From assembly GCA_963674825.1 (NCBI GenBank), contig OY771587.1:2272001-2336000 (forward strand): a stretch of DNA of 64,000 nucleotides, in the 5' to 3' direction. The position numbers were made by a program, and so were the translations under genes. The notes under the pieces are model-generated. The model did no database searches. It was not told the origin of the DNA and was given only the letters and a program-made list of their open reading frames with translations. This stretch comes from Candidatus Cloacimonadales bacterium (lineage in GTDB: Bacteria > Cloacimonadota > Cloacimonadia > Cloacimonadales > JAIOQZ01). How positions within the stretch are numbered: position 1 is the first letter of the stretch; each line of letters opens with the position of its first letter. Below, piece by piece: positions 1 to 12,404 of the stretch.

Positions 1-253
1 TATCTGAAACGCCTGGAGAATGTGTTTCATAATGCAATAAATCGTGGCGATGAGGTAGCTAAGCAGGCGCATGAGGCGATGAAATCCGATCAGGAAAGAG
101 TTCTCCAGCAAAATGGTGCAAAGTTGCTGTTATTGTTCTTCTATAGCGCTGCCGTGGTGATTGTCTCGATGTTTGTGTGAGGAAATGCGCTCGGTTCAGC
201 GGTCCCGCCTTGCTGTGTTGTAATGGGATTTGCGGGGACAACTCATCTCAAGT

Positions 254-289
254 TCCCTCGATACGCACTCCGTGCTACTCGGGATGACA
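254..289 (-). repeat. Short palindromic intergenic element (GTCATCCCGAG...CGAGGGA type)
   Basis: Minus strand reads TGTCATCCCGAGTAGCACGGAGTGCGTATCGAGGGA, an imperfect hairpin; only one copy in the window. Confidence 0.35.
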
Positions 290-399
290 CGTGATTGGTG
301 GCGAGCAATAGAAGTATTTTCGTAGTAAATTAGGCAAATCCTCTTCCAACAATCAAGGCAGCCCACCCTCCCTCGTTGCGAGCGCATTTCTTCCAGTCG

Positions 400-1608
400 C
401 TAATCGATTTTCAATTCACCGTATTTTCCGTCGTATCCGGGTGGATCAAACCGGAAATGGCCAGCCTGAACGTGACAGATAGCTTGAAGAACATGATCGG
501 GTATAACGTGAGAAAGCTCTGCTAAGAGGTCATCGGAAGTCCACAGCGCGATTTCAGAGGGATAGACGGACATAATGGCGTCGAAGGTGGAACGGACTTT
601 CTTCGAGGATGCGTTTTTCACACCGAAAGCAGCAGCGATAACTTCCACCAGGGGTATCAGGTGGAGGAATTTTCGCGGAAGCGGTTTCAGAGATTCGTCT
701 TGCAGCGACTTACTGCGGTGGAGAACGCCCTGGTGCATGGGCTTTCCGCAGATAGTGCAGCGATAATCTTTCGGTGGATCGCTGTAGAATATGGTGTGGG
801 TGTCCTTGTCGTGCCCGGTCATGAAGTATCGACCTTCGGCAGGATTAAACTCGGCTGTCAGGTGCACGTTGTTACCACGTAAAGCGTCGATGATACCCCG
901 GTAATCGAAGGTAGCTGCGTCGAGGATGGTGAATTCCCGACCGATGCGGTTGAGGGCAGCACTATGGCAGTCGCTGTTGGATATCATGGTGAGTCTGTGG
1001 AAATCGGGGATGGTTCCGAGCATGGAAGGGTCAGCGCTGAGCCCGGTCTCGATTACGCGGATATTGGGCGTGAAATCGCCGTAGAACTCGGTAATAGAGC
1101 GGAGGTTGTTTTTACTGCCCATGATGCCGTCGGGTGTCATGACGTGCGCAGGTATGATCTCGATATCAGGATGTACGTCCTGCATTTCGAAGAGGCGGTC
1201 TTGTAGTTGGGCTGGATTCTCTGTGACGATGAATGGCCTGCCGATGGTGTTCTTGTCACCGTGTCGCTGCATGATCCGCTGCATCTTCTGGATGGATGCG
1301 AAATCAGGGAAGAGGATGACGTGATGCGCGACGGTGCGGTTTGTGTAGCCCTCGATCTGCGTGGAGAGGATCACCTCGGTTTGTAATAGGAAGCGTGAGG
1401 AATCGCCCTTCAGCGCGAAGAGTCCCGATTCCTCTTCGCGCAACAGAGCTTGTAATTCTTGCGTACGGACGGGGAGGAGACAGTCGCCGGTACCGAAGAC
1501 ATCGATTCCCTTGAGTTTCATCGTCCGGGAGACGTCTTCGAGGCAAATCTGTCCAACGCCACCCGCATAACCGGAATGCGAGTGGAGATCGACCGCAATT
1601 CTCTTCAT
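400..1608 (-). CDS. Endonuclease Q family protein (PHP domain)
   Basis: DLHSHS, KGIDVFGTGD, PAH, ETGLSAD, SNSDCHS-x5-GRE, CxxC and C-terminal PGYDGKYG motifs. Confidence 0.85.
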   Translation of the reverse strand: MKRIAVDLHSHSGYAGGVGQICLEDVSRTMKLKGIDVFGTGDCLLPVRTQELQALLREEESGLFALKGDSSRFLLQTEVILSTQIEGYTNRTVAHHVILFPDFASIQKMQRIMQRHGDKNTIGRPFIVTENPAQLQDRLFEMQDVHPDIEIIPAHVMTPDGIMGSKNNLRSITEFYGDFTPNIRVIETGLSADPSMLGTIPDFHRLTMISNSDCHSAALNRIGREFTILDAATFDYRGIIDALRGNNVHLTAEFNPAEGRYFMTGHDKDTHTIFYSDPPKDYRCTICGKPMHQGVLHRSKSLQDESLKPLPRKFLHLIPLVEVIAAAFGVKNASSKKVRSTFDAIMSVYPSEIALWTSDDLLAELSHVIPDHVLQAICHVQAGHFRFDPPGYDGKYGELKID

Positions 1609-3318
1609 TTATTTCAGTGCTTCGAGTTCCTCACGAACGAAATCGACGAGGCTCTTAATATAGTCAGCGCTGAAGTCAAACCGGATACCGGCTGCTTCGT
1701 AGAGCTCATTAACCGGCTTGGTGTAAAGCAGGCTGAGGAAGTTTTCGTACTGATCGACGGCCTTCTTGGGATCCTGGCGGTAGTTACGGTAGATGGAGAG
1801 CGCGCCAAGCTGCGAGATACCGTACTCGATGTAGTAGAACGGCGTTTCGAAGATGTGCAGCTGACGTTTCCAAAGGTTTTTGCGATTCTCTGTCAGGCCG
1901 CTCCAGTCTGTGCCGGAGTCGAAGCGTTCGCTGAGTTCCAGGAAGAACTTCGCCCGTTCTTCGGGAGTGTGGTCGGGATTGAGATAAATCCAGTGCTGGA
2001 AGGCGTCGACGACCATGCACCACGGCAGGAATGTCAGCGTTCCTTCGAGCTGCTCGCGTTTCGCTTTTTTAAGGTCTTCTTCGTCGCTGTAGAATTCATT
2101 CCAGAAATCCATCGAGATCAGCTCCATGCTCATGGAAGCAAGCTCGGCTACTTCGCTAGGTGTATCGCGGTAGAAGCTGATTGGCGTGTTGTTCATCTTG
2201 GAAGCATGCAGCGCGTGGCCTGCTTCGTGGAGCAGCGTGCTGACGTCGTCCTGAACGCCGACTGAATTCATGAAGATGAAGGATGCTCCCCATTCGCTGA
2301 GCGGATAGTTGTACCCGCCCGGAGCCTTGCCTTTGCGGTTGTCGAGATCGAGGAAACCAGTGTTTCTCATGAGCTCGAGCTGCTTGCCGAACTCAGGTTT
2401 GATCTTGCTGAGGATGCGGATCGATTTCTCGGTCAGCTCTTCAGTGTCCTCGAATGGCTTGAGGATTTTTCCATCGAGATCGACGGAAGTGTCCCATGGG
2501 CGCAGTACGTCGAGACCGAGTTTCGCTTTGCGTTCTTCGTTGAGCTCTTTGCAGAAAGGCACAACGTGTTTTTCTACCGATTCATGGAACTGGTAGAGAT
2601 CTTCGGGTGTGTAGCTGAAGCGGCCTTTCGCGCGATGCGTATAATCTCGATAATTGTCGAAACCGCAATTCTTTGCCATTTGAATACGTAATGCTTTCAT
2701 CGCGTCGAAGAGTTCATCGAATTCCGCGCTTTTCTCGAGGTATTTTCCCTGGACAAGCTGCCATACTTCTTCACGCACTTTGCGGTCGGTCTTCTTCAGG
2801 TAGATCGAAAGCTGGCGCATTGTCTGCTCTTTGCCGTCGTATTCGGCGGTCAGGCTACCGGAGAGTGCGCCGTATTTGTTGGCGATCTCGCGTTCCTGCT
2901 GGCTGAGCGGCGTGTTTTCTTCGCGGAAAAGCTCGATATCGACCGCGATGATCTTGTTCAGAAGGTCGTATTTGTCTTTGTCCAACTCGTGGCGGTAAGG
3001 GCTGTCGTAGAATTTCTTCATAAGCTCGAACGACGGCTTCCTGGTATTGCTGACGATTTCCGAGTAGAAGGTGTTGAAAGCCTCTTCTTTTTCGGGCTGA
3101 TCGGCGTGACAAGACATTGCGATGTAGCGATGGGCCATCTCATCAGCCGTGATGAAGGAAAGTTCGCTGTACTGCTTGAGCAATTCGATCAGATCGTCGG
3201 CTGAATTGATCTCCATGTCGAGAAGGCGCTCAAATTCTGCTACGACTTGTTCTTTGATGGAGGGATCAAACGATTCCGAGTAGAATCTTCTTGGGTATTT
3301 CGTCAATTTGTCTGACAT
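1609..3318 (-). CDS. pepF: M3 family oligoendopeptidase F
   Basis: HEAGH zinc motif, RKGKAPGGY, EVAELASMSMEL, PFYYIEY; 569 aa. Confidence 0.9.
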   Translation of the reverse strand: MSDKLTKYPRRFYSESFDPSIKEQVVAEFERLLDMEINSADDLIELLKQYSELSFITADEMAHRYIAMSCHADQPEKEEAFNTFYSEIVSNTRKPSFELMKKFYDSPYRHELDKDKYDLLNKIIAVDIELFREENTPLSQQEREIANKYGALSGSLTAEYDGKEQTMRQLSIYLKKTDRKVREEVWQLVQGKYLEKSAEFDELFDAMKALRIQMAKNCGFDNYRDYTHRAKGRFSYTPEDLYQFHESVEKHVVPFCKELNEERKAKLGLDVLRPWDTSVDLDGKILKPFEDTEELTEKSIRILSKIKPEFGKQLELMRNTGFLDLDNRKGKAPGGYNYPLSEWGASFIFMNSVGVQDDVSTLLHEAGHALHASKMNNTPISFYRDTPSEVAELASMSMELISMDFWNEFYSDEEDLKKAKREQLEGTLTFLPWCMVVDAFQHWIYLNPDHTPEERAKFFLELSERFDSGTDWSGLTENRKNLWKRQLHIFETPFYYIEYGISQLGALSIYRNYRQDPKKAVDQYENFLSLLYTKPVNELYEAAGIRFDFSADYIKSLVDFVREELEALK

Positions 3319-5462
3319 GATAACTCCTTATATTTCAATTCTCTTAAAGCAATGACAAGGGAGTTCTCCTGGAACTCCACGGGGTTGATAAAAATCTCGA
3401 TTTCAATAGGCTTACCTGCTTTGGTTTTCGTGCAAGCAGGGAACCATCGTTCAGATGACCCGATCAGGTAGGCGATGAGGCTTTTCCTGATCGCTTCGAT
3501 CATATCGAGTGTCACATACAGGTAGAACGACGACATCATTTCCTGGGCGTGCTTCATGTCGAAGAGCCTCAGACAGGCCTGATTTACTTCCAGAATCTCC
3601 ATTTTATCGAGGCGCTTCTTGACTTCACCAAGATTAGATTCGATCAGTGTATTCGGATCAACGTTTTTTTCGTATATGACTTTTTTGAGCTTGTGTATTG
3701 TCGTCGGATCCTGCACGATCAGCATGGGCAGTGGGTTGTTCTCGAACAGGATTCGGTTCATGATATATTGCTCGTCGAGTCGTTCGCTTGTGTGACGATA
3801 GTCGTTGATATCGATAGCACTGCTGAAGATTCTTTCCATCACTCCCTGCTCATTTTTCTGGACAATCAGATTGCTCGACAACCAGCGATAATCATTGAAC
3901 TTGGTTCGGATGCGGTATGCGAGTGTTGTTGTGGTGAGCTTTTGGTTGTTCTCCTCCGCTTCGAAGAAAAAATTCCGTAGCAGGCTTCGATCCTCAGGAT
4001 GAACAAGCTCCATCATAGATTCATATGTGAGTGAATATAGTTCCTCATAGGTAAATCCATAAAGGCTGATGGCGGTGTCGTTTGCAAACTCGACTTTATT
4101 CTTGATCGCATCAAACGAGAAAATCGAAAGATTCGAAACGTTCATAAGGACATCAAGGATATCACCGTGCTCGAAGCTGAAACCAGTAACAACCTTGATG
4201 TAGTAGGTTATATCGGTAACGATTGCCATAACGCCATTGGGATTACCGCTTAGGTCGCGAATCGTAGTAGGGGAGATCGTCAGCCAGATACGTTCACCGT
4301 TTTTCTTCACGATGGTTATCTCATATTTACGATCTCCCATTTGTGGCCGTTCATCGCGCATTCGGTTGACCTTCTGCATCATGGACGGCTCGAAGAAATC
4401 CCATATCTTACTGCCGAGATAGTCCTCTTCCGAGTACCCGGTCATTTCGCACAGCTTACGGTTTACGAGAGTAAAACGTTCATCGCGATCGATGATCACC
4501 ATGCCTTCATTCATGTTGTCCATAAGAGCACGGTAATTATGCATGGTTTCGTGAAGTTGCCGGCGGGAAGAGTCTCTGTCGATGAAGCTGGCGATCCAGT
4601 TTGTGAAAACGAGTAACGTATCCAGCGTGAGGGTTCCGACAGCCTTCATTTCAATCTGAATGGCAATGATTCCTATGGGACGCTCTTCGCTAAGCATGGG
4701 GATGAGGTGATTCGCAGGCACATCGGAGTGTTGCCATGGAAAGAAATGCTGCTCGCCTTCATCAGATTTCAGCTCGCCAGGTATTGCACGCCTGGAGATT
4801 GTCGGCGGAAACTGATTCTGCGCTTCGGTTCGTTGGCAAGAGGATAGAAGACGGAGCTTTTGCGAATCTGTAAAAGTGTAAACCGCACAGTTGAGGATCC
4901 CTTTTATCCGGCAGATCGCTTCCAGGATTTCGTTGAGAGATTCTTGGGTGTTGCTCACTTTCTGCAAGGCATTCAGAATCTCATACTGTACTTGCAGGAT
5001 GTCCTCTGCACGGTCGTAATTCTCCTTGTAGCTGTTGCCATTATCTTCTTCCTTATGAAGGAACCTGACGGATCTTAAATCCGGCTTGGGTTCTGGTTCC
5101 TTTTCCGGATTTATCGCTTTTCCAAAGTCAAAAAATATAAGCAGGCCATAGTCTCTTTTTTCGATCCAAACACAGGATACAATGAGATTTCTCCCTTCTG
5201 TAGTATTTCCCTGAGGTGAATAATGGATGGAGAAGTTACCAGGCCGATTCTCGTTTAACCTTGGAATAATCTGAGTTCCGAGAACATTATCGAGCTCTTT
5301 ACCGACAGTTGTGATCCTGTTTTGTTTGAAAAAGCGATTGAAAGCGTCGTTCGTGAAGACGATTCTACCATAAGGCTGATGGATCATCACTGTTGGCTCG
5401 ATAATCTCCTGCATCACCTTGCGGTAATGAGCGAGCTTTTCTTCCCGGTGTGGACTATCCAT
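3303..5462 (-). CDS. Multi-PAS/GAF sensor protein with no recognisable output domain
   Basis: PAS/PAC motifs (YRALMDNMNEGMVIID, KKNGERIW, VHPEDR, RWL) and a GAF-like segment; ATG at 5462 overlaps the upstream stop. Confidence 0.75.
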   Translation of the reverse strand: MDSPHREEKLAHYRKVMQEIIEPTVMIHQPYGRIVFTNDAFNRFFKQNRITTVGKELDNVLGTQIIPRLNENRPGNFSIHYSPQGNTTEGRNLIVSCVWIEKRDYGLLIFFDFGKAINPEKEPEPKPDLRSVRFLHKEEDNGNSYKENYDRAEDILQVQYEILNALQKVSNTQESLNEILEAICRIKGILNCAVYTFTDSQKLRLLSSCQRTEAQNQFPPTISRRAIPGELKSDEGEQHFFPWQHSDVPANHLIPMLSEERPIGIIAIQIEMKAVGTLTLDTLLVFTNWIASFIDRDSSRRQLHETMHNYRALMDNMNEGMVIIDRDERFTLVNRKLCEMTGYSEEDYLGSKIWDFFEPSMMQKVNRMRDERPQMGDRKYEITIVKKNGERIWLTISPTTIRDLSGNPNGVMAIVTDITYYIKVVTGFSFEHGDILDVLMNVSNLSIFSFDAIKNKVEFANDTAISLYGFTYEELYSLTYESMMELVHPEDRSLLRNFFFEAEENNQKLTTTTLAYRIRTKFNDYRWLSSNLIVQKNEQGVMERIFSSAIDINDYRHTSERLDEQYIMNRILFENNPLPMLIVQDPTTIHKLKKVIYEKNVDPNTLIESNLGEVKKRLDKMEILEVNQACLRLFDMKHAQEMMSSFYLYVTLDMIEAIRKSLIAYLIGSSERWFPACTKTKAGKPIEIEIFINPVEFQENSLVIALRELKYKELSCQTN

Positions 5463-6408
5463 CTGCTTCCTCGCCTGTGGCGTTGAGAACCGTACTGATA
5501 GAGACATCGCTGGCCCCGGATCTCTTTCGGAAGAGGTTTACAAGCAGCTCGCCGATAAGACCAATCGAAAGGAACTGCATTCCGATCATGATCATGAGCA
5601 GGCCGAGTAGCAGAAGCGGACGATTGGAAAGTGGGTGTCCGAAACCAAGCTTGAGGACGGTGAGATAAGCTTCGATCACGAATCCAATTGCCATCATGAC
5701 GGTTCCCCATCCTCCAAAAAGGTAAAGCGGACTGCGATTGTAGCCAGTGATGAGCCTAACAGTGAGTAAATCGAGGAATCCGCGCATGTAGCGCTCGAAT
5801 CCGTACTTGGTTTTGCCAAATTCTCGCGGTCTGTGATCAACCGGGATTTCGGTTACACGAAAGCCTTTGGAATCAGCCAAAACCGGGATATAACGATGCA
5901 ATTCGCCATAGACGTCGATCTCTTCGGTAATCTCTCTACGATAGGCCTTAAAGCCGCAATTGTAGTCGTGCAGGCGTAGGCCGAATACCCATGAGGTAAC
6001 GTTATTGAAGAAACGTGACAGAATCTTTTTCTCAAGCGGATCGTGACGCTTCTTCTTCCATCCGGAAACCAGATCGAACCCTTCATCGAGTTTTTCGAGG
6101 AATTTCCCGATCTCGGCGGGATTATCCTGCAAATCTGCGTCGAGTGTAAAGACGATTTCGCCCGTAGCATAGTGGAACCCCTGCTTCAGCGCGGCTGATT
6201 TACCGAAGTTCCGTCGGAAGCGGATGACCGTTACGCGTTGGTCTTCCTTGGCGAGCTCTTGCATCTTCGCGAAGCTGCTGTCTGTGCTGCCATCGTCGAT
6301 GAAAACGAACTGCTTCTCATAACCTTCGGTGTACTGGTTTATTTCGTCGTATAGACGTCGGATGGTGTCTTCTTCGTTGCAGACAGGTATCACAAATGAT
6401 AGCTTCAT
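5455..6408 (-). CDS. GT2 polyprenyl-phosphate glycosyltransferase (ArnC/GtrB/DPM-like)
   Basis: FIDDGSTD, RNFGKSAA, DADLQD, DYNCGFK and two C-terminal TM helices. Confidence 0.9.
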   Translation of the reverse strand: MKLSFVIPVCNEEDTIRRLYDEINQYTEGYEKQFVFIDDGSTDSSFAKMQELAKEDQRVTVIRFRRNFGKSAALKQGFHYATGEIVFTLDADLQDNPAEIGKFLEKLDEGFDLVSGWKKKRHDPLEKKILSRFFNNVTSWVFGLRLHDYNCGFKAYRREITEEIDVYGELHRYIPVLADSKGFRVTEIPVDHRPREFGKTKYGFERYMRGFLDLLTVRLITGYNRSPLYLFGGWGTVMMAIGFVIEAYLTVLKLGFGHPLSNRPLLLLGLLMIMIGMQFLSIGLIGELLVNLFRKRSGASDVSISTVLNATGEEADG

Positions 6409-6411
6409 ACC

Positions 6412-7014
6412 TTACCCCGGGATGAAAATATTGGTTATCGCCATGATAATCGCGGCGAAGACCGGAATCTTGATGTTATCGTCAACCTGGATACGGGATG
6501 CTTCAGCGATGGTTGTCGCCAGCGCTCCGGTAAAGCACAGCGCGGGATGTATCCCGAATGCCAGCCCGAACGCGAAGCTGCTGGTGAAGCACGCGAGGCT
6601 CCCTTCCAGGCTCTTGCTGGTTCCTCTGATTTTGCGCTTTCCCATCAGAATTCCAATGATAGCCGCGAACGTATCGCCTACAGCTAAGGACGAGAGCGCG
6701 AAGAAAGCGATCATGTCGCCCGGAAAGAATGCAAAGCAAACCAGCGAGGAGACCATCAGGTAGGTTGCGCCGGTGAAATTGTTCACCTCGTGTTTACGCA
6801 ACAGGATTCCGAACAGGTGGTAGAATATCCGGCGGAATGTCTTGTTCTCCAGCCGGATGATTTCGATAGCCATTGCAATGATGGTCAATGGCAAGAGGAT
6901 CAGAAACATCAGCTTCCGATCCTCGTGTAAAATATAGAGATATGACAACGGAATCACGAGCGAGGAGATGTGGATCGTCTTGCGAAAAGCCTCTTTCAGC
7001 TTACGTGATTCCAT
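6412..7014 (-). CDS. CTP-dependent polyprenol/phytol/diacylglycerol kinase (SEC59/VTE5/DGK1 family)
   Basis: RKTIH, GDTFAAIIG, KSLEGS and DDN motifs; multi-TM. Confidence 0.85.
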   Translation of the reverse strand: MESRKLKEAFRKTIHISSLVIPLSYLYILHEDRKLMFLILLPLTIIAMAIEIIRLENKTFRRIFYHLFGILLRKHEVNNFTGATYLMVSSLVCFAFFPGDMIAFFALSSLAVGDTFAAIIGILMGKRKIRGTSKSLEGSLACFTSSFAFGLAFGIHPALCFTGALATTIAEASRIQVDDNIKIPVFAAIIMAITNIFIPG

Positions 7015-7020
7015 GGCTCA

Positions 7021-8211
7021 TTATACGTTCAGCTTGCTGACGACAAAAGCCTTTGCAAGCTCGGCGACGAGGATTGGATCCTTCTTGATCGCCTGGAAAA
7101 AGATTTCGCGGAGCGTGAGTTTATCGGTCGGAAGCGTATTGCACATGGCGATCAACCGATTGAGGTTTTCGTCGCCGTAGTGCAGGTATTTGCTCTTCAT
7201 CTTGTACATCAACCGGTGGTTCGCTCCCAGGGCTTTGTCCCATTCCTTGTAGTAACGGGAGAGGAACTTCTTGCTGAAGTCCCTTTTCTCGACAGCCATT
7301 GCAGCCGTTTCACCGGCTTTCGCGCCACCAAACATCGCCGTGATGATGCCTCCGCCGGTCATGGGATTGACCTGCCGCGCCGCATCGCCAGCGAGCATGA
7401 TGCGCTCGGAAGCCATATCTTTAAGCGGAAGTCCGGTGGGGATTCCGCCACATACGATGGCATTGATCTGGCCATTCGGGAAACGCTTTTGCACGAAATT
7501 GTCGAGATAGGAGATCGGCCCGTGATCTTTGATCATGTTGCCCGAAAGCCCCAGTCCGACGTTTGCGGCAGTCTTGGACTTCGGGAATATCCAGGTATAA
7601 CCTCCCGGCGCCATGTGGTCACCGAAGAAGAATTCACAATATCTCTGATCGGCATCGATGTTTGTCATCGTGTACTGGATGGAAGTTTCAATATCTTCCA
7701 AATCGCATGCGGTGTCGATACCAGCCCAACGCCCCACGCGTGATTCTACACCGTCAGCGCCGATAACCAGGTCGCATTTCACCACATGTTCCTGTCCGAG
7801 GTGACGATATCTTACGCCGCAGATTTGTTCATTATGATATTCGAGTCCGATCGCATCCGCTTTAGTGAGCATGTGTGCTCCTTCAGCGCAGGCGAGGTTA
7901 CAGAGCTCGCGATCAAAGATACGCCGTTCAAGGATATAGCCAGCGCCTATGTTGTGCAGCTCGAGCATAGTTCCATCGGGTGCGTAGATACGTGCGGCGT
8001 CAATTTCGACTGCGATCCATTTGGGATCAGGTTTGATAAACTGCGCGAGTCCCTTGTGAGACACGCCTTCTGCGCAACGTACCGGAATGCCGGGTTCGCG
8101 GTCGCGTTCCAGGATCAGAACGCTTGCTCCGCCTTTTGCTGCGTAGCGCGCAGCTGTGCTGCCGGCAGGACCTGAGCCGATTACGACTACATCATATCGA
8201 TTCTCGATCAT
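7021..8211 (-). CDS. Geranylgeranyl reductase family flavoprotein (DGGR-like)
   Basis: GSGPAG, PVRCAEG, GADG, PGGYTWIFP and GDAA...PMTGGGI; start at 8211 preceded by GGAGG. Confidence 0.9.
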   Translation of the reverse strand: MIENRYDVVVIGSGPAGSTAARYAAKGGASVLILERDREPGIPVRCAEGVSHKGLAQFIKPDPKWIAVEIDAARIYAPDGTMLELHNIGAGYILERRIFDRELCNLACAEGAHMLTKADAIGLEYHNEQICGVRYRHLGQEHVVKCDLVIGADGVESRVGRWAGIDTACDLEDIETSIQYTMTNIDADQRYCEFFFGDHMAPGGYTWIFPKSKTAANVGLGLSGNMIKDHGPISYLDNFVQKRFPNGQINAIVCGGIPTGLPLKDMASERIMLAGDAARQVNPMTGGGIITAMFGGAKAGETAAMAVEKRDFSKKFLSRYYKEWDKALGANHRLMYKMKSKYLHYGDENLNRLIAMCNTLPTDKLTLREIFFQAIKKDPILVAELAKAFVVSKLNV

Positions 8212-8381
8212 GATTGACCTCCCGAAATTGCTTTGAATGGGCAAATCGTTTCGCATTTTCCGCACTCGATGCAAGTATTCAGGTCAATGTACACACGAAA
8301 TTCGGTGACTCGAATAGCATCGACCGGACATACCGCGACGCAGGTGCCGCAAAGTCCGCAAATCTCATGATCGATTTTCAT
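8208..8381 (-). CDS. 2[4Fe-4S] ferredoxin, 57 aa (absent from the ORF track)
   Basis: Translated by hand: MKIDHEICGLCGTCVAVCPVDAIRVTEFRVYIDLNTCIECGKCETICPFKAISGGQS; two CxxCxxCxxxCP motifs, GGAGA RBS, ATGA overlap with the reductase start. Confidence 0.93.
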   Translation of the reverse strand: MKIDHEICGLCGTCVAVCPVDAIRVTEFRVYIDLNTCIECGKCETICPFKAISGGQS

Positions 8382-8401
8382 ATAATCTCCAAACTATGGT
8401 T

Positions 8402-9943
8402 TTATTCGCTGAATTGGTGATCCAGAATCACCATATTTCCATCGTTGCGAAGCTGTATCACAACGTCGTATTTAATATAGGATTCCATCGTGTTTTTACC
8501 GGAAAAGAGCAGTCCTGTGCTGTCCATATGTTCCTTGGTAAATCCCCGTACGAGGAATACCGGTTCCGGGTTTCCCTGTCCGAAAGGCTGGAAACGGTCG
8601 AGGTCGTTGAGCATCTGTTCGTGGATTTGATTCGGGGCGATCAGTGCGTCGATTTCAATCTTGCGTGAAAGCTCAATCTCATTACGGTGATCGTCCACGA
8701 ACTCACGGAAGCATTCCTTGAATTCATCGAGACGTTCCTCATGGATGGTGAAGCCGGCAGCGCGTGCGTGGCCGCCGTATTGCACCAGAATATCGCTACA
8801 ATGGTTGAACGAATCGATCAGATTAAAACCATCTGTGCAGCGTGCTTCGCCGACGATGAGGCCCTTCTTTCTCTTCAGGAAGATTACAGGAATCTTGAAA
8901 ATGCTGGCTACAATTGATGCTGAAAGGCCATAGAGCGCGAAAGGTATGCGATCCTGTTCGTCGAAGTAGAAGTGATAGAATCCTTCCGGCTTGATGCTCA
9001 TGACGATGTCGAGCACGACATTGATCTTCCGCTCATATTCGTTCTTCTCCATGAAGAGACGCTTGAGGTGATCGCGTTTTTCCACAGGATTTGCCACTAA
9101 CAACTTCATGCCGCGATTCTCGCCGTTACGCATACGACCGCTGGATAGGATCTTGTAGGTAAAAGCGATGAAATTCATTTTGGAACGTTTGTCTTCAGGC
9201 GTGTAGTAGTACTGACTGAGAAAATGTGCCGTATCGTCGAAGATGGATTTCCATTTATCCAGTACTTCCAAGCAGATGATACGGTTAACGCCGTCGAGCG
9301 GAGCTTTATCCGCGACAAGCCCTACCATGACCCAGAACATATAACTGGGGCTTGGTTCCACATCGCATTCACGGGCGATTTGCCGAATCAGAAACCATGT
9401 GACTCCAACGCCGGCCAGCATCGGATAGGGATACTGGCAGTCTGCCTGCTTCGGATTGACGATCGCGTAAGCTTCGGGCAGTTCGTCCTGTACCAGATGA
9501 TGATCGGTGATGATGGTGTCGATACCAGCTTCATTCAGTGCTTTCACGCCTTCGAAAGACGAGCTGCAGCCATCGACGGTAATCACAAGATCGGCCTTCA
9601 ATTCCTTCGCCTTCCGGACGAAAGACGGCTGGATACCATGATGATCGACCAGCCGGTTTGGGATATAGTAAAAGTGGTTTTGCGACCCGAGCTTTTCAAG
9701 GTAGTCGAAAAGGATGTAAGTGCTAGTTATCCCATCGGGATCGTCGTCACCGTATATTACGATGGTTTCTTTATCGATCAGGGCCTGGATTACGCGTTTG
9801 GCGGCCTTCTCAAGGTCCTTCATCAGCGTGTCTTCAGGCAGATCGTCAAGGGTAACCTTGAATGTTTCTTCCCGGTAGTCACGCTTGGCTACAAGTTGCT
9901 CGATTAGTGTACGGTCGCCGGGATCGTTCCAAATCCATTTCAT
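8402..9943 (-). CDS. recJ: ssDNA-specific exonuclease RecJ (DHH/DHHA1)
   Basis: YGDDDPDG, ITVD, TDHH, GGHARAAG, PFGQGNPEP. Confidence 0.85.
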   Translation of the reverse strand: MKWIWNDPGDRTLIEQLVAKRDYREETFKVTLDDLPEDTLMKDLEKAAKRVIQALIDKETIVIYGDDDPDGITSTYILFDYLEKLGSQNHFYYIPNRLVDHHGIQPSFVRKAKELKADLVITVDGCSSSFEGVKALNEAGIDTIITDHHLVQDELPEAYAIVNPKQADCQYPYPMLAGVGVTWFLIRQIARECDVEPSPSYMFWVMVGLVADKAPLDGVNRIICLEVLDKWKSIFDDTAHFLSQYYYTPEDKRSKMNFIAFTYKILSSGRMRNGENRGMKLLVANPVEKRDHLKRLFMEKNEYERKINVVLDIVMSIKPEGFYHFYFDEQDRIPFALYGLSASIVASIFKIPVIFLKRKKGLIVGEARCTDGFNLIDSFNHCSDILVQYGGHARAAGFTIHEERLDEFKECFREFVDDHRNEIELSRKIEIDALIAPNQIHEQMLNDLDRFQPFGQGNPEPVFLVRGFTKEHMDSTGLLFSGKNTMESYIKYDVVIQLRNDGNMVILDHQFSE

Positions 9944-9949
9944 GTGTTA

Positions 9950-11176
9950 TTACTTTTTGTCCGGTTGCGGTATATCGCGATGTTCGATGTTCTTTTTGCG
10001 TTTTTTGAATATGTCGAATCCCTTGGTTCCGATGGTGAACATGACGGTCTTTTCCTGAAGACCATGATCATTCTTATCGCCACGAAGGGTGTATTGAACT
10101 GCGAAGTGTATCTCTTTTCCGGGTGATTTGAATGGCACAGAGAACCCTCCGCTGAATCCCATCTCATTTACGCGATTCTCGTTTACTTCAAAGGGAAGCT
10201 GGCGATAGCTGAAGCCGACACGTACGGGCAAGCTTGCATACCAGTCCTGACGTTCGTACATGGGATCATAAGCGATTCCGATGCTGGCACGGTAGGAATT
10301 GAGATTCTCCACGGCGTTATCGGTTTTTTCCCATAGCTCGTAGTGGAAGTCGCTCGAGAATTTGAATTTCTGTTTGAGCCGCCAGGTTACGCTGAGGCTG
10401 TAGCGTTCGGGGAGCTCGAAGGAGCTGTCGTCCAGATCGCTCACATAGGGATCGAAAACGTAGTTGAATTCGGTGTCGCCTTCCAGCTTGACCTCGGGGC
10501 GATATGCCACGCCGAAAGAGAGATTGCTGAAGCGTTTGCTGAGGCCGATGTTCCAGCTGTAGTTGTGGAAGTAGTGGTCGGTCTCGTACTTAGCGTCAAC
10601 ATAGTCGTCGTCTTCAAAATCAGCCTCCACATAGCGTGAGCGCTGCCCGGTGTAGTAGTTAACGCCGAGTCCGACGTTGATCCAATCCGTATGCAGAGCA
10701 TAGATTGCGTCCAGCCGGTAGATGTTGGATTCGATCCGGTTGATTTCCGTCACGTTCGTGGTTCCGTTGGAGAATGTGTATGAGCGTGTGATTTCGCTCT
10801 CGTAATTACCAGCGGATACAGTGTTGAAGTTGAACGCGAAGTGGTGATTGCCAAAGGGCACTGCGACGGAGAAGTAGGGCAGAAAAAGCCCATCGTCGCG
10901 GAATGAGTTACCAGCTTTATCGGAATAATACATATAGCCAAACGTGACGCCCGAGGAGAAAACCACGCTGCTGCACGAAGTGGCCAGTGACGGATTACCG
11001 AATCCGGTGTTGAAACGATAGAGGTCTGAGTAACCTGTTTCGCCCATTCCGAGGGAATATGTATCGACGCTATAGTACTGCTCGGCAAAGCCATAGCTCG
11101 AAAAAATCGAGTTCGCTGCCAGCATGCCTGATACCGCCAATATAAGCGCGAGAATGCAATATCTTTTTCCTGTCAT
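9950..11176 (-). CDS. Outer membrane beta-barrel protein (FadL/PorV-like superfamily)
   Basis: Signal peptide, S-x-FSSYGF...SLGMG...NPSL N-terminal plug motif, alternating aromatic beta strands. Confidence 0.7.
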   Translation of the reverse strand: MTGKRYCILALILAVSGMLAANSIFSSYGFAEQYYSVDTYSLGMGETGYSDLYRFNTGFGNPSLATSCSSVVFSSGVTFGYMYYSDKAGNSFRDDGLFLPYFSVAVPFGNHHFAFNFNTVSAGNYESEITRSYTFSNGTTNVTEINRIESNIYRLDAIYALHTDWINVGLGVNYYTGQRSRYVEADFEDDDYVDAKYETDHYFHNYSWNIGLSKRFSNLSFGVAYRPEVKLEGDTEFNYVFDPYVSDLDDSSFELPERYSLSVTWRLKQKFKFSSDFHYELWEKTDNAVENLNSYRASIGIAYDPMYERQDWYASLPVRVGFSYRQLPFEVNENRVNEMGFSGGFSVPFKSPGKEIHFAVQYTLRGDKNDHGLQEKTVMFTIGTKGFDIFKKRKKNIEHRDIPQPDKK

Positions 11177-11471
11177 TAGACGTTTCCTTTCAGAGTACCT
11201 TGAACGATCAAAAAACTATTATTCAATCACGTTGTCAAACATTCTTTCCTGCGAAATTATGTACGTTATTAAGTTCGGTCTATCGGCTTGTTTCACAGCG
11301 TTCCGGTGTTGGCTGTGGATGAATAGGGCCGGAAGTGAGCCATTTCGACGATCTTAACAAAATAATTGGTTGACATCCCACACGGTGTTAGCGTAGAGCA
11401 GACGTAGTATTTCCCTTCTACCTGACGACCGTTAAAAGTGCGTCGAAGGCAGGGGAAACAGAGAGGAGACC

Positions 11472-12404
11472 ATGAAAAAATTCTCGCCCTTTCTCTACAT
11501 CCTTCCGGCAGCGATAATCATTATCCTGTTCCGGTTGATCCCGATCATTATCTCCTTTTTCATCAGCTTTTTCGAATGGAAAGTTGATGGTATCGGCTCG
11601 TTCATCGGGCTTCAGAACTACATGCACATCTTTGTGGATCAAGAGTTCTGGCAGTCGATGGTCAACACCTTCTACCTCGTTGTGTTCGTGGTGCCGTCAA
11701 CCTTGGTTCTCTCCTTGATATTCGCGGTTCTGCTGAACCACATCAATGCGCTCAAGGCTTTTTTCCGCACCATATACTTCATTCCTACGGTGACTTCGCT
11801 TGTAGCTATCTCGATCGTCTGGAAAATCATCTACAATCAGCAGAGCGGTCTGATGAACTTCCTGCTGGGCAAGATCGGCATCAATCCGCTCGGTTGGCTC
11901 TCAGAGAGCACCGGCATCTTTCAGATGATCTTCGATAATTTCAACGTACAATTGCCTGCGGTGTTTCAGGGACCATCTCTAGCCCTCTTCTCGATCATCA
12001 TCCTATCCGTATGGCGCTCATTGGGTTACAATACGATTATCTATCTTGCGGGATTGCAGAATATCCCGAATGTATATTATGAAGCTGCCTCTATCGACGG
12101 TGCAAGCAAGGTGCGGCAGTTCTTCGGAATCACCATTCCAATGATCTCGCCCACAACATACTACGTGCTGATGATGACCACGATTACCACTTTCCAGGTA
12201 TTTTCGCAGGTTTACCTGATGACTGGACCTCCCATTGGCGGTCCGCTGGGAACGACAAAAGTGATCGTCTATTATATCTTCGACAAAGGCTTTGGCGAAA
12301 GCAATAACCTGAGTTACGCAAGTGCGATCGCGCTCGTGCTCTTCCTGATTATTCTGGGACTTACCATGCTGCAGAAGCGGCTTGAGAAACGAGTTCACTA
12401 TTGA
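11472..12404 (+). CDS. Carbohydrate ABC transporter permease (MalF/UgpA type)
   Basis: GLQNY, EAA motif YYEAASIDGAS, six TM helices. Confidence 0.9.
   Translation: MKKFSPFLYILPAAIIIILFRLIPIIISFFISFFEWKVDGIGSFIGLQNYMHIFVDQEFWQSMVNTFYLVVFVVPSTLVLSLIFAVLLNHINALKAFFRTIYFIPTVTSLVAISIVWKIIYNQQSGLMNFLLGKIGINPLGWLSESTGIFQMIFDNFNVQLPAVFQGPSLALFSIIILSVWRSLGYNTIIYLAGLQNIPNVYYEAASIDGASKVRQFFGITIPMISPTTYYVLMMTTITTFQVFSQVYLMTGPPIGGPLGTTKVIVYYIFDKGFGESNNLSYASAIALVLFLIILGLTMLQKRLEKRVHY

Follow-up and report, generated by a model that had tools for sequence, protein, structure and literature searches.

An archaeal-type geranylgeranyl reductase and its adjoining ferredoxin beside a putative lipid kinase-glycosyltransferase pair in Cloacimonadota

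In Methanosarcina acetivorans, the geranylgeranyl reductase (GGR) works with a ferredoxin encoded at the same locus (Isobe et al. 2014, as summarised in a review, PMC4244643), and the Ca. Cloacimonetes carry a geranylgeranylglyceryl phosphate synthase (GGGPS), a digeranylgeranylglyceryl phosphate synthase (DGGGPS) and Euryarchaeota-like GGRs, from which saturation of their lipids was inferred (Villanueva 2021, PMC7852524). The presence of a GGR in Cloacimonetes and the GGR-ferredoxin pairing of Methanosarcina are both already known. Here we analysed a stretch of 64,000 nt from a Cloacimonadota contig (the window, to which positions below refer unless a genome is named), in which four closely spaced, co-oriented genes on the minus strand (5455..8381) encode a ferredoxin, a GGR, a putative lipid kinase and a family 2 glycosyltransferase (GT2). 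The original prediction for this locus had proposed these four identities, against the background that the M. acetivorans GGR acts with an adjacent ferredoxin and that some FCB/Cloacimonadota genomes encode archaeal ether-lipid enzymes. Both points agree with the sources above, all four open reading frames (ORFs) were found on the minus strand, and the identities were borne out by Pfam, NCBIfam, motif and structure comparisons. No publication on this four-gene cluster was found, judging by titles and abstract openings and with subscription papers mostly out of reach.

Taken together, our analysis makes it reasonably probable, though by no means certain, that the ferredoxin and the GGR saturate archaeal-type diether lipids and that the kinase and the GT2 form a separate lipid-phosphate-sugar module. 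The reductase (396 aa; 7021..8211, minus strand) is an archaeal-type, FAD-dependent, DGGR-like member of the GGR family, scoring 223.5 bits against TIGR02032 (cut-off 158.8). Its best NCBIfam model is that of the Thermoplasmatales DGGR (DGGPL_Thplmales, 276 bits), ahead of BchP (140), ChlP (83) and MenJ (74), and its closest solved relative is the Thermoplasma DGGR 3OZ2 (E = 1.7e-73). The motif set described for DGGR (active-site cysteine, RxxFD, YxWxFP, LxGDAA and GGG; PMC6309074, PMC10821996) is intact, with Cys46 behind the FAD, and this cysteine is kept without exception in 81 aligned rows.

A MenJ-like menaquinone side-chain reductase, or a reductase with a non-lipid substrate, would belong to the same superfamily, and the MenJ model does match the protein at E = 1.1e-20. 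That match, however, lies far below the MenJ cut-off of 700 bits and the score for the DGGR model. The sole UbiA-family match in the host genome, which sits behind a short-chain prenyl synthase gene, is best to DGGGPS-type models, and no MenA-like gene was found there; menaquinone is therefore an unlikely substrate, and a menaquinone reductase was rejected as a candidate. Likewise, of nine GGGPS-less genomes with GGR that were searched, eight lack any UbiA protein. We regard this alternative, against which the original prediction had asked for a check, as highly improbable.

Immediately upstream of the GGR gene lies that of a 2x[4Fe-4S] dicluster ferredoxin (57 aa; 8208..8381, minus strand; Pfam Fer4/Fer4_10, with Fer4 at E = 7.9e-17) with two CxxCxxCxxxCP motifs, all eight cysteines of which are invariant in 33 aligned copies. 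A greedy ORF caller had skipped it for a 68-aa ORF on the opposite strand; the coordinates of the two genes (8381-8208 and 8211-7021) confirm the predicted 4-nt overlap, in which the GGR start codon (ATG, 8211-8209) and the ferredoxin stop codon TGA share ATGA. Shine-Dalgarno-like sequences precede both starts (GGAGA for the ferredoxin, GGAGG for GGR). The ferredoxin gene lies upstream of GGR in all 28 fetched Cloacimonadota loci with a full-length GGR and in 25 of 25 loci from outside the phylum. It is missing from the GGR locus in two relatives (G066 and G067) and beside a second GGR copy in another (G139). This conserved adjacency, the model scores and the motifs agree with the predicted archaeal-type GGR with a dedicated ferredoxin.

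Structure prediction points in the same direction. The modelled ferredoxin-GGR complex scored 0.91 and the best of three controls 0.00. In a benchmark that is only roughly valid with the alignments used here, the mark attained by the complex was achieved by 116 of 157 solved pairs and by 2 of 215 mismatched ones. The model runs shared 100% of contacts, with a partner pLDDT of at least 89, and the interface takes in residue 45 of GGR, the neighbour of the catalytic Cys46, and, on the ferredoxin, the stretches 9-19 and 45-50, which contain cysteines. At the level of a prediction, the model supports binding of the ferredoxin to GGR. Interface identity exceeds that of the rest of the protein in most ferredoxin-bearing loci and not in G066 or G067, with no clear excess in G130, family f16 or the outside-phylum sequences either; this measure was not used as support.

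Two further GGR-family proteins were seen during this work. One is encoded in the host genome (G000:C1:1031654-1032850) and exceeds the TIGR02032 cut-off at 29% identity to the cluster GGR; it has neither the catalytic cysteine nor a neighbouring ferredoxin. The other, the second copy in G139 (contig C55), groups with the GGR of the host genus on a long branch and is a possible case of transfer or contamination.

The upstream genes of an ether-lipid pathway, encoding a GGPP/FPP synthase, GGGPS and a DGGGPS-like protein, are present in the host genome, which is closed (3.89 Mb). As the original prediction had asked, we searched for both dedicated synthases: GGGPS passes the TIGR01769 cut-off, and the single UbiA protein is DGGGPS-like, although below model cut-offs. 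Most relatives keep the prenyl synthase, DGGGPS and GGGPS genes in one run, while GGGPS and DGGGPS are unlinked in the host, where GGGPS (G000:C1:59649-60329) stands before genes for a Cps4B-like phosphatase and an NAD-dependent epimerase-like protein; the same split recurs in family f1. In genomes that have no GGGPS, the prenyl synthase that otherwise precedes DGGGPS is kept with falling scores (192, 162, 135 and 132 bits), and DGGGPS is gone from its side.

Named homologues at 52-59% identity are mostly from Cloacimonadota, and we surveyed 158 genomes of the phylum, each at least 90% complete. Of these, 79 gave a match to GGR, 70 to GGGPS and 145 to the kinase. The reductase accompanies GGGPS closely, being present in 67 of the 70 GGGPS-positive genomes versus 12 of the 88 GGGPS-negative ones. 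The three GGGPS-positive genomes without GGR (G002, G030 and G033) also have no kinase match and no intact GT2 locus, which is what gaps in the assemblies would produce. Within the order of the host, 29 of 41 genomes have a full-length GGR ortholog, and the cluster is well conserved, as the original prediction would have it: in the 28 fetched loci of these relatives, GT2, like the ferredoxin, is always adjacent, and the kinase is so in 26.

The distribution of the kinase is different. It is present in 76 of the 79 GGR-less genomes and in 80 of the 88 GGGPS-less ones, and is absent from 10 of the 79 genomes that have GGR. The kinase-GT2 region was retrieved from nine of the 12 GGR-less genomes of the order, the other three having no kinase match; eight show the order BamG-RecJ-kinase-GT2 with ferredoxin-GGR cleanly missing, so that RecJ adjoins the kinase directly, and the ninth has kinase-GT2 in a different setting. 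In five of seven fetched loci of family f16, a stretch of about 3.5-4.3 kb with thiamine-biosynthesis-like genes (a label from sequence reading) lies between GGR and kinase-GT2. Since they have been lost and moved independently, ferredoxin-GGR and kinase-GT2 are two separable pairs and not one obligate pathway. In eight genomes of family f12, the order is ferredoxin-GGR-GT2 with the kinase absent genome-wide, and three such loci (L107, L108 and L183) have a conserved gene of about 300 aa after GT2.

Loci from outside the phylum bear this out. Twenty-five GGR loci came from a scan of species genomes; 24 of these are titled Ignavibacteria/Bacteroidota and one Chloroflexia. The upstream ferredoxin is present in every one of them, and an ortholog of the kinase or of the full-length GT2 in none, as far as the fetched flanks (in part short) extend; what travels as a unit is therefore ferredoxin-GGR. 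A DGGGPS-like gene stands beside the ferredoxin in two of the 25. GGGPS occurs in 24 of the 25 genomes, although genes of its family may be widespread in this group in any case. Kinase-family matches are likewise found in 24 of the 25 genomes. The Ignavibacteria/Bacteroidota kinases of the SEC59/DGK1/VTE5 type lie directly behind an FtsH-like gene (again a label from sequence reading) in 23 of the 24 loci fetched, and not beside GGR or GT2.

The kinase gene (200 aa; 6412..7014, minus strand) follows GGR after 6 nt and encodes a putative CTP-dependent lipid kinase of the SEC59/DGK1/VTE5 type. No Pfam or NCBIfam family is assigned to the protein, and the assignment is based on a DOLK-type motif at residues 114-138. 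Compared with the CTP-binding motif of dolichol kinases, DxxAxxxGxxxG-x8-KKTxEG (PMC13586052), the spacing is one residue shorter and SKSLEG replaces KKTxEG. D114, A117, G121, K134 and G138 are invariant, and G125 and E137 are kept in at least 90% of 76 aligned rows. Relatives are named in databases as SEC59/DGK1/VTE5 family, dolichol kinase, phytol kinase, phosphatidate cytidylyltransferase or diacylglycerol/polyprenol kinase; the substrate may be polyprenol, a diacyl or diether glycerol, or phytol, as the sequence does not separate the subfamilies. The predicted structure (pLDDT 93.7) has CdsA and CarS as its nearest folds, at Z 9.0 with 4q2e (root-mean-square deviation 6.8, 167 residues aligned) and Z 7.7 with 5guf (3.3, 96 aligned), values that are modest for a helical protein. 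Foldseek gave no match at E <= 0.001, with CdsA ranked first and no dolichol-kinase structure among the matches listed. An identity as CdsA, or as the missing CarS, was rejected: CTP_transf_1 scores 15.1 bits against 24, a separate CdsA is present (as in five of five genomes examined), and the likeness is one of fold only.

A distant relationship between dolichol kinase and CdsA has been described by Lombard 2016 (PMC5088576), who doubted that most prokaryotic homologues are true dolichol kinases. That doubt, like the family names that include DGK1 and diacylglycerol/polyprenol kinase, would suit a Dgk1-like diacylglycerol or diether kinase with a role in the recycling of lipid cores such as archaeol, with the GT2 serving another glycolipid and the four genes forming a loose membrane-lipid group. 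Yet the kinase adjoins an ArnC/GtrB-like polyprenyl-phosphate glycosyltransferase throughout the phylum sample, and its retention in GGGPS-less genomes means that it is not dedicated to archaeol, so that we consider such a recycling kinase quite unlikely. Our literature search found nothing on an archaeol kinase, nor any paper that treats SEC59, VTE5 and DGK1 kinases together for bacteria.

The last gene of the cluster, 3 nt further on, encodes a GT2 with two C-terminal hydrophobic segments (317 aa; 5455..6408, minus strand; Pfam Glycos_transf_2). Its closest solved relatives are ArnC (E = 7e-52), GtrB (sll0501; E = 1e-30) and DPMS (E = 2e-19), which suggests a polyprenyl-phosphate glycosyltransferase. 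It falls below the ArnC equivalog cut-off (191.9 versus 529) and below that of PgfS, and no arn genes are among its neighbours in the window. Candidate GT-C acceptors were sought through PF13231, which was matched in three of five genomes, and no single acceptor can therefore be tied to the GT2.

The original prediction had joined the four genes into a single bacterial route that reduces, phosphorylates and glycosylates an isoprenoid, giving a dolichol-like carrier or saturated archaeol-type lipids. In a strict form of such a route, free polyprenol would be saturated at its alpha unit by GGR and rephosphorylated by the kinase, and the GT2 would make a dolichyl-phosphate sugar, mirroring the eukaryotic order of reductase, DOLK and DPM1/ALG5. 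The gene order kept in 26 of 28 fetched loci would fit such a route. So would the gene that follows GT2 in six family f11 stretches (40 examined), which a motif suggests to be UDP-sugar pyrophosphorylase-like and which hints at glucose; in the host genome, however, about 190 kb separate such a gene from GT2. With an archaeal GGR, reduction of the alpha unit was confined to free alcohols and did not occur on diphosphates (PMC6309074), so that a pairing of reductase with kinase would make sense, but deletion of the Haloferax GGR left alpha saturation intact (PMC10821996). Moreover, loss has occurred independently in both directions (76 genomes with kinase and no GGR, 10 with GGR and no kinase), and the kinase homologues outside the phylum stand beside the FtsH-like gene. 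We therefore give a true dolichol-type pathway only a small probability. Of the predicted scheme, the branch to saturated archaeol-type lipids is supported, and the single route is not supported as the main reading.

Several observations weigh against saturation of diether lipids as the role of the ferredoxin and GGR, and the most telling come from genomes that have GGR without GGGPS. Twelve genomes in four genera retain such an orphan GGR with its frame intact. No UbiA protein was found in eight of the nine searched, the ninth having one whose match to the DGGGPS is short and weak. The ratio of non-synonymous to synonymous substitutions (dN/dS) was about 0.09-0.20 in five of six orphan pairs, with dS near saturation and the sixth pair saturated. 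Because these orphans are under purifying selection and UbiA is absent in eight of nine, a diether lipid cannot be the only substrate of GGR. Cys46 is kept in all 10 orphans examined, and GT2 is adjacent in all 10 fetched orphan loci. Nevertheless, the orphans have diverged. Their identity to five outgroup sequences from family f16 is 34.7-42.5% (n = 10) versus 45.3-51.5% for the other GGRs (n = 30, among them a genome of 68% completeness that gave no GGGPS match), while GT2 identity to the outgroup is unshifted (means 58.4 and 59.6). Similarly, the GGR/GT2 dN ratio is 1.4-3.4 in seven orphan pairs versus 0.6-1.7 in eight GGGPS-positive pairs, with some overlap. Among the orphans, the ferredoxin is gone from the locus in two, the kinase is missing in eight, RxxFD is altered in three of 10 and the proline of YxWxFP in two of 10. 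In G066 and G067, GGR stands between RecJ and kinase-GT2 with RxxFD altered, no ferredoxin at the locus and neither GGGPS nor UbiA in the genome. Faster divergence of reductases that remain intact and constrained fits the loss of a main substrate, the diether lipid, with a residual second job.

For that second job, a polyprenyl carrier is the most likely substrate on our analysis. GGR could, as a second or even main activity compatible with the diether role, saturate the omega-terminal and internal trans units of undecaprenyl phosphate; the kinase and GT2 would then use a partly saturated carrier, although they could use the ordinary one too. The orphans speak for this, as does the presence of a cis-prenyltransferase and two trans-prenyl synthases in five of five genomes examined, three of them GGGPS-less with GGR. 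There are also precedents in the Haloferax GGR, which acts on dolichol phosphate (PMC10821996), and the mycobacterial HepR, which acts on heptaprenyl diphosphate (PMC10821996, PMC5088576). On the other side, GGR has been lost from 76 GGGPS-less genomes, every one of which retains the kinase; the orphans resemble staged decay, with faster evolution and losses of kinase, ferredoxin and motifs; and bacterial carriers are described as fully unsaturated (PMC5088576). Saturation of undecaprenyl phosphate is thus a tentative proposal that we hold to be rather unlikely. Marginally more plausible, but still doubtful, is the broader idea that ferredoxin-GGR saturates a polyprenyl carrier besides the diether lipid, so that glycans would be built on a partly or alpha-saturated dolichol-like phosphate made with the kinase and GT2. 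The dolichol-like carrier of the original prediction accordingly does not serve as the principal explanation, and is retained as a possible side activity for which the 12 orphan GGRs are the best argument.

Other points also count against the diether role. GGR scores below the archaeal DGGR equivalog cut-offs (NF041160, 276 versus 780 bits; NF041080, 173 versus 580), but these models are lineage-specific, and the missed cut-off therefore lowers the case for GGR being that equivalog rather than for its working like it. The host DGGGPS-like protein is under the cut-off of every NCBIfam model, a search of the host genome for glycerol-1-phosphate dehydrogenase (G1PDH) with PF13685 gave only weak partial matches, and the accessible text of PMC11129491 and PMC11868695 contains no Cloacimonadota lipid measurements. 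The complex score may partly reflect a distant solved FixC complex (7KOE chain C). The partner of that chain is presumably FixX, which would make a FixC-ferredoxin-like pair. The co-occurrence of GGR with GGGPS rests on few independent events, namely one large clade, family f14 and the incomplete G005. The clade is made up of GGGPS-less genomes from families f2, f3, f4 and f12, of which all 18 sampled group together in a tree of GT2, kinase, RecJ and BamG with support 0.83 (1.0 with only 12 of those genomes), and this pattern agrees with loss in later-diverging lineages (bioRxiv 2021.10.08.463351). Family f14, with GGGPS and GGR both missing in six of six genomes, and G005, which is 81% complete, look like separate co-losses. 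Finally, kinase-GT2 immediately follows ferredoxin-GGR in most of the order and is no more than about 5 kb from it in the five f16 loci mentioned above, a persistent proximity that is compatible with a functional link between the pairs.

The close packing of the four genes is not peculiar to them, because a longer co-oriented run encloses them. A gene for a BamG-family beta-barrel protein (9950..11176, minus strand; NF053685 E = 7.8e-38, under the cut-off) heads the conserved run; 6 nt downstream is that of a RecJ-like exonuclease (8402..9943, minus strand), which ends 20 nt upstream of the ferredoxin. These two genes lead the run across the order, with RecJ absent from the locus in several genomes. 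At the other end, GT2 overlaps by 8 nt a PAS-domain gene (3303..5462, minus strand) that is a neighbour at the genus level only. Its 734-aa ORF, probably 719 aa from the likely start ATG at 5462, has several PAS domains and no Pfam match to an output domain. A promoter and terminator scan of positions 1-11600 was uninformative, with eight promoter-like sites versus 11.8 in shuffled sequence and 15 terminator-like sites versus 11.1.

Under the diether explanation that we favour, the ferredoxin would dock near the flavin site and pass electrons to GGR, whose reduced flavin would hydrogenate the geranylgeranyl chains of digeranylgeranylglyceryl phosphate, or of its head-group derivatives, to phytanyl chains, as homology and co-occurrence suggest. 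The product would be saturated diether (archaeol-type) phospholipids. The kinase and GT2 would constitute an older, phylum-wide envelope module, in which the kinase would phosphorylate a lipid alcohol with CTP, free polyprenol being the likeliest substrate, and the GT2 would load a nucleotide sugar onto polyprenyl phosphate; the two pairs would simply be neighbours within a housekeeping run of Cloacimonadota genes. If so, the cluster would provide the last ether-lipid step, with a named electron donor, for the bacteria in which the synthesis of archaeal-type lipids has been proposed. It also predicts fully saturated archaeol from bacteria, a matter of interest for the lipid divide and for the use of archaeol as a biomarker, and offers a two-gene cassette for E. 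coli archaeal-lipid strains; all this is an increment on Villanueva 2021. Should GGR also saturate the polyprenyl carrier, a dolichol-like carrier in a Gram-negative bacterium would be surprising; the 12 GGGPS-less genomes with GGR would then be a natural experiment, and the enzyme could model the unknown alpha-saturation step of archaeal dolichol.

Compared with described systems, the GT2 shares with ArnC, GtrB and DPMS its GT2 domain and two C-terminal hydrophobic segments, with full-length likeness to ArnC, but unlike them it stands in no arn or gtr operon and scores below the ArnC and PgfS cut-offs. Similarly, the kinase has the CTP-binding motif and the all-helical membrane fold related to CdsA/CarS in common with the SEC59/DOLK, DGK1 and VTE5 kinases, and differs from them as a 200-aa single-domain bacterial form with its variant motif. 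The Haloferax volcanii GGR, which acts on the omega unit of dolichol phosphate, and HepR are GGR-family enzymes on polyprenyl phosphates and set a precedent for a second substrate, the likeness to HepR being one of described function. The set of Villanueva 2021 (PMC7852524) is from the same phylum and, as here, includes two polyprenyl synthases and CdsA; it has no clear G1PDH, where the present genome gave the weak partial matches noted above. Its GGR was not assayed, and the main text names no adjoining ferredoxin, kinase or glycosyltransferase. The closest counterparts are the archaeal DGGR-ferredoxin systems of M. acetivorans, Thermoplasma acidophilum (3OZ2) and the Archaeoglobus GGR locus (PMC10821996). 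Although the present locus differs from these in its bacterial host, in scoring below the equivalog cut-offs and in its setting within a RecJ/BamG/kinase/GT2 run, it shares with them the fold family, the catalytic motifs and a small 4Fe-4S ferredoxin gene beside the reductase, and its GGR probably catalyses the same reaction.

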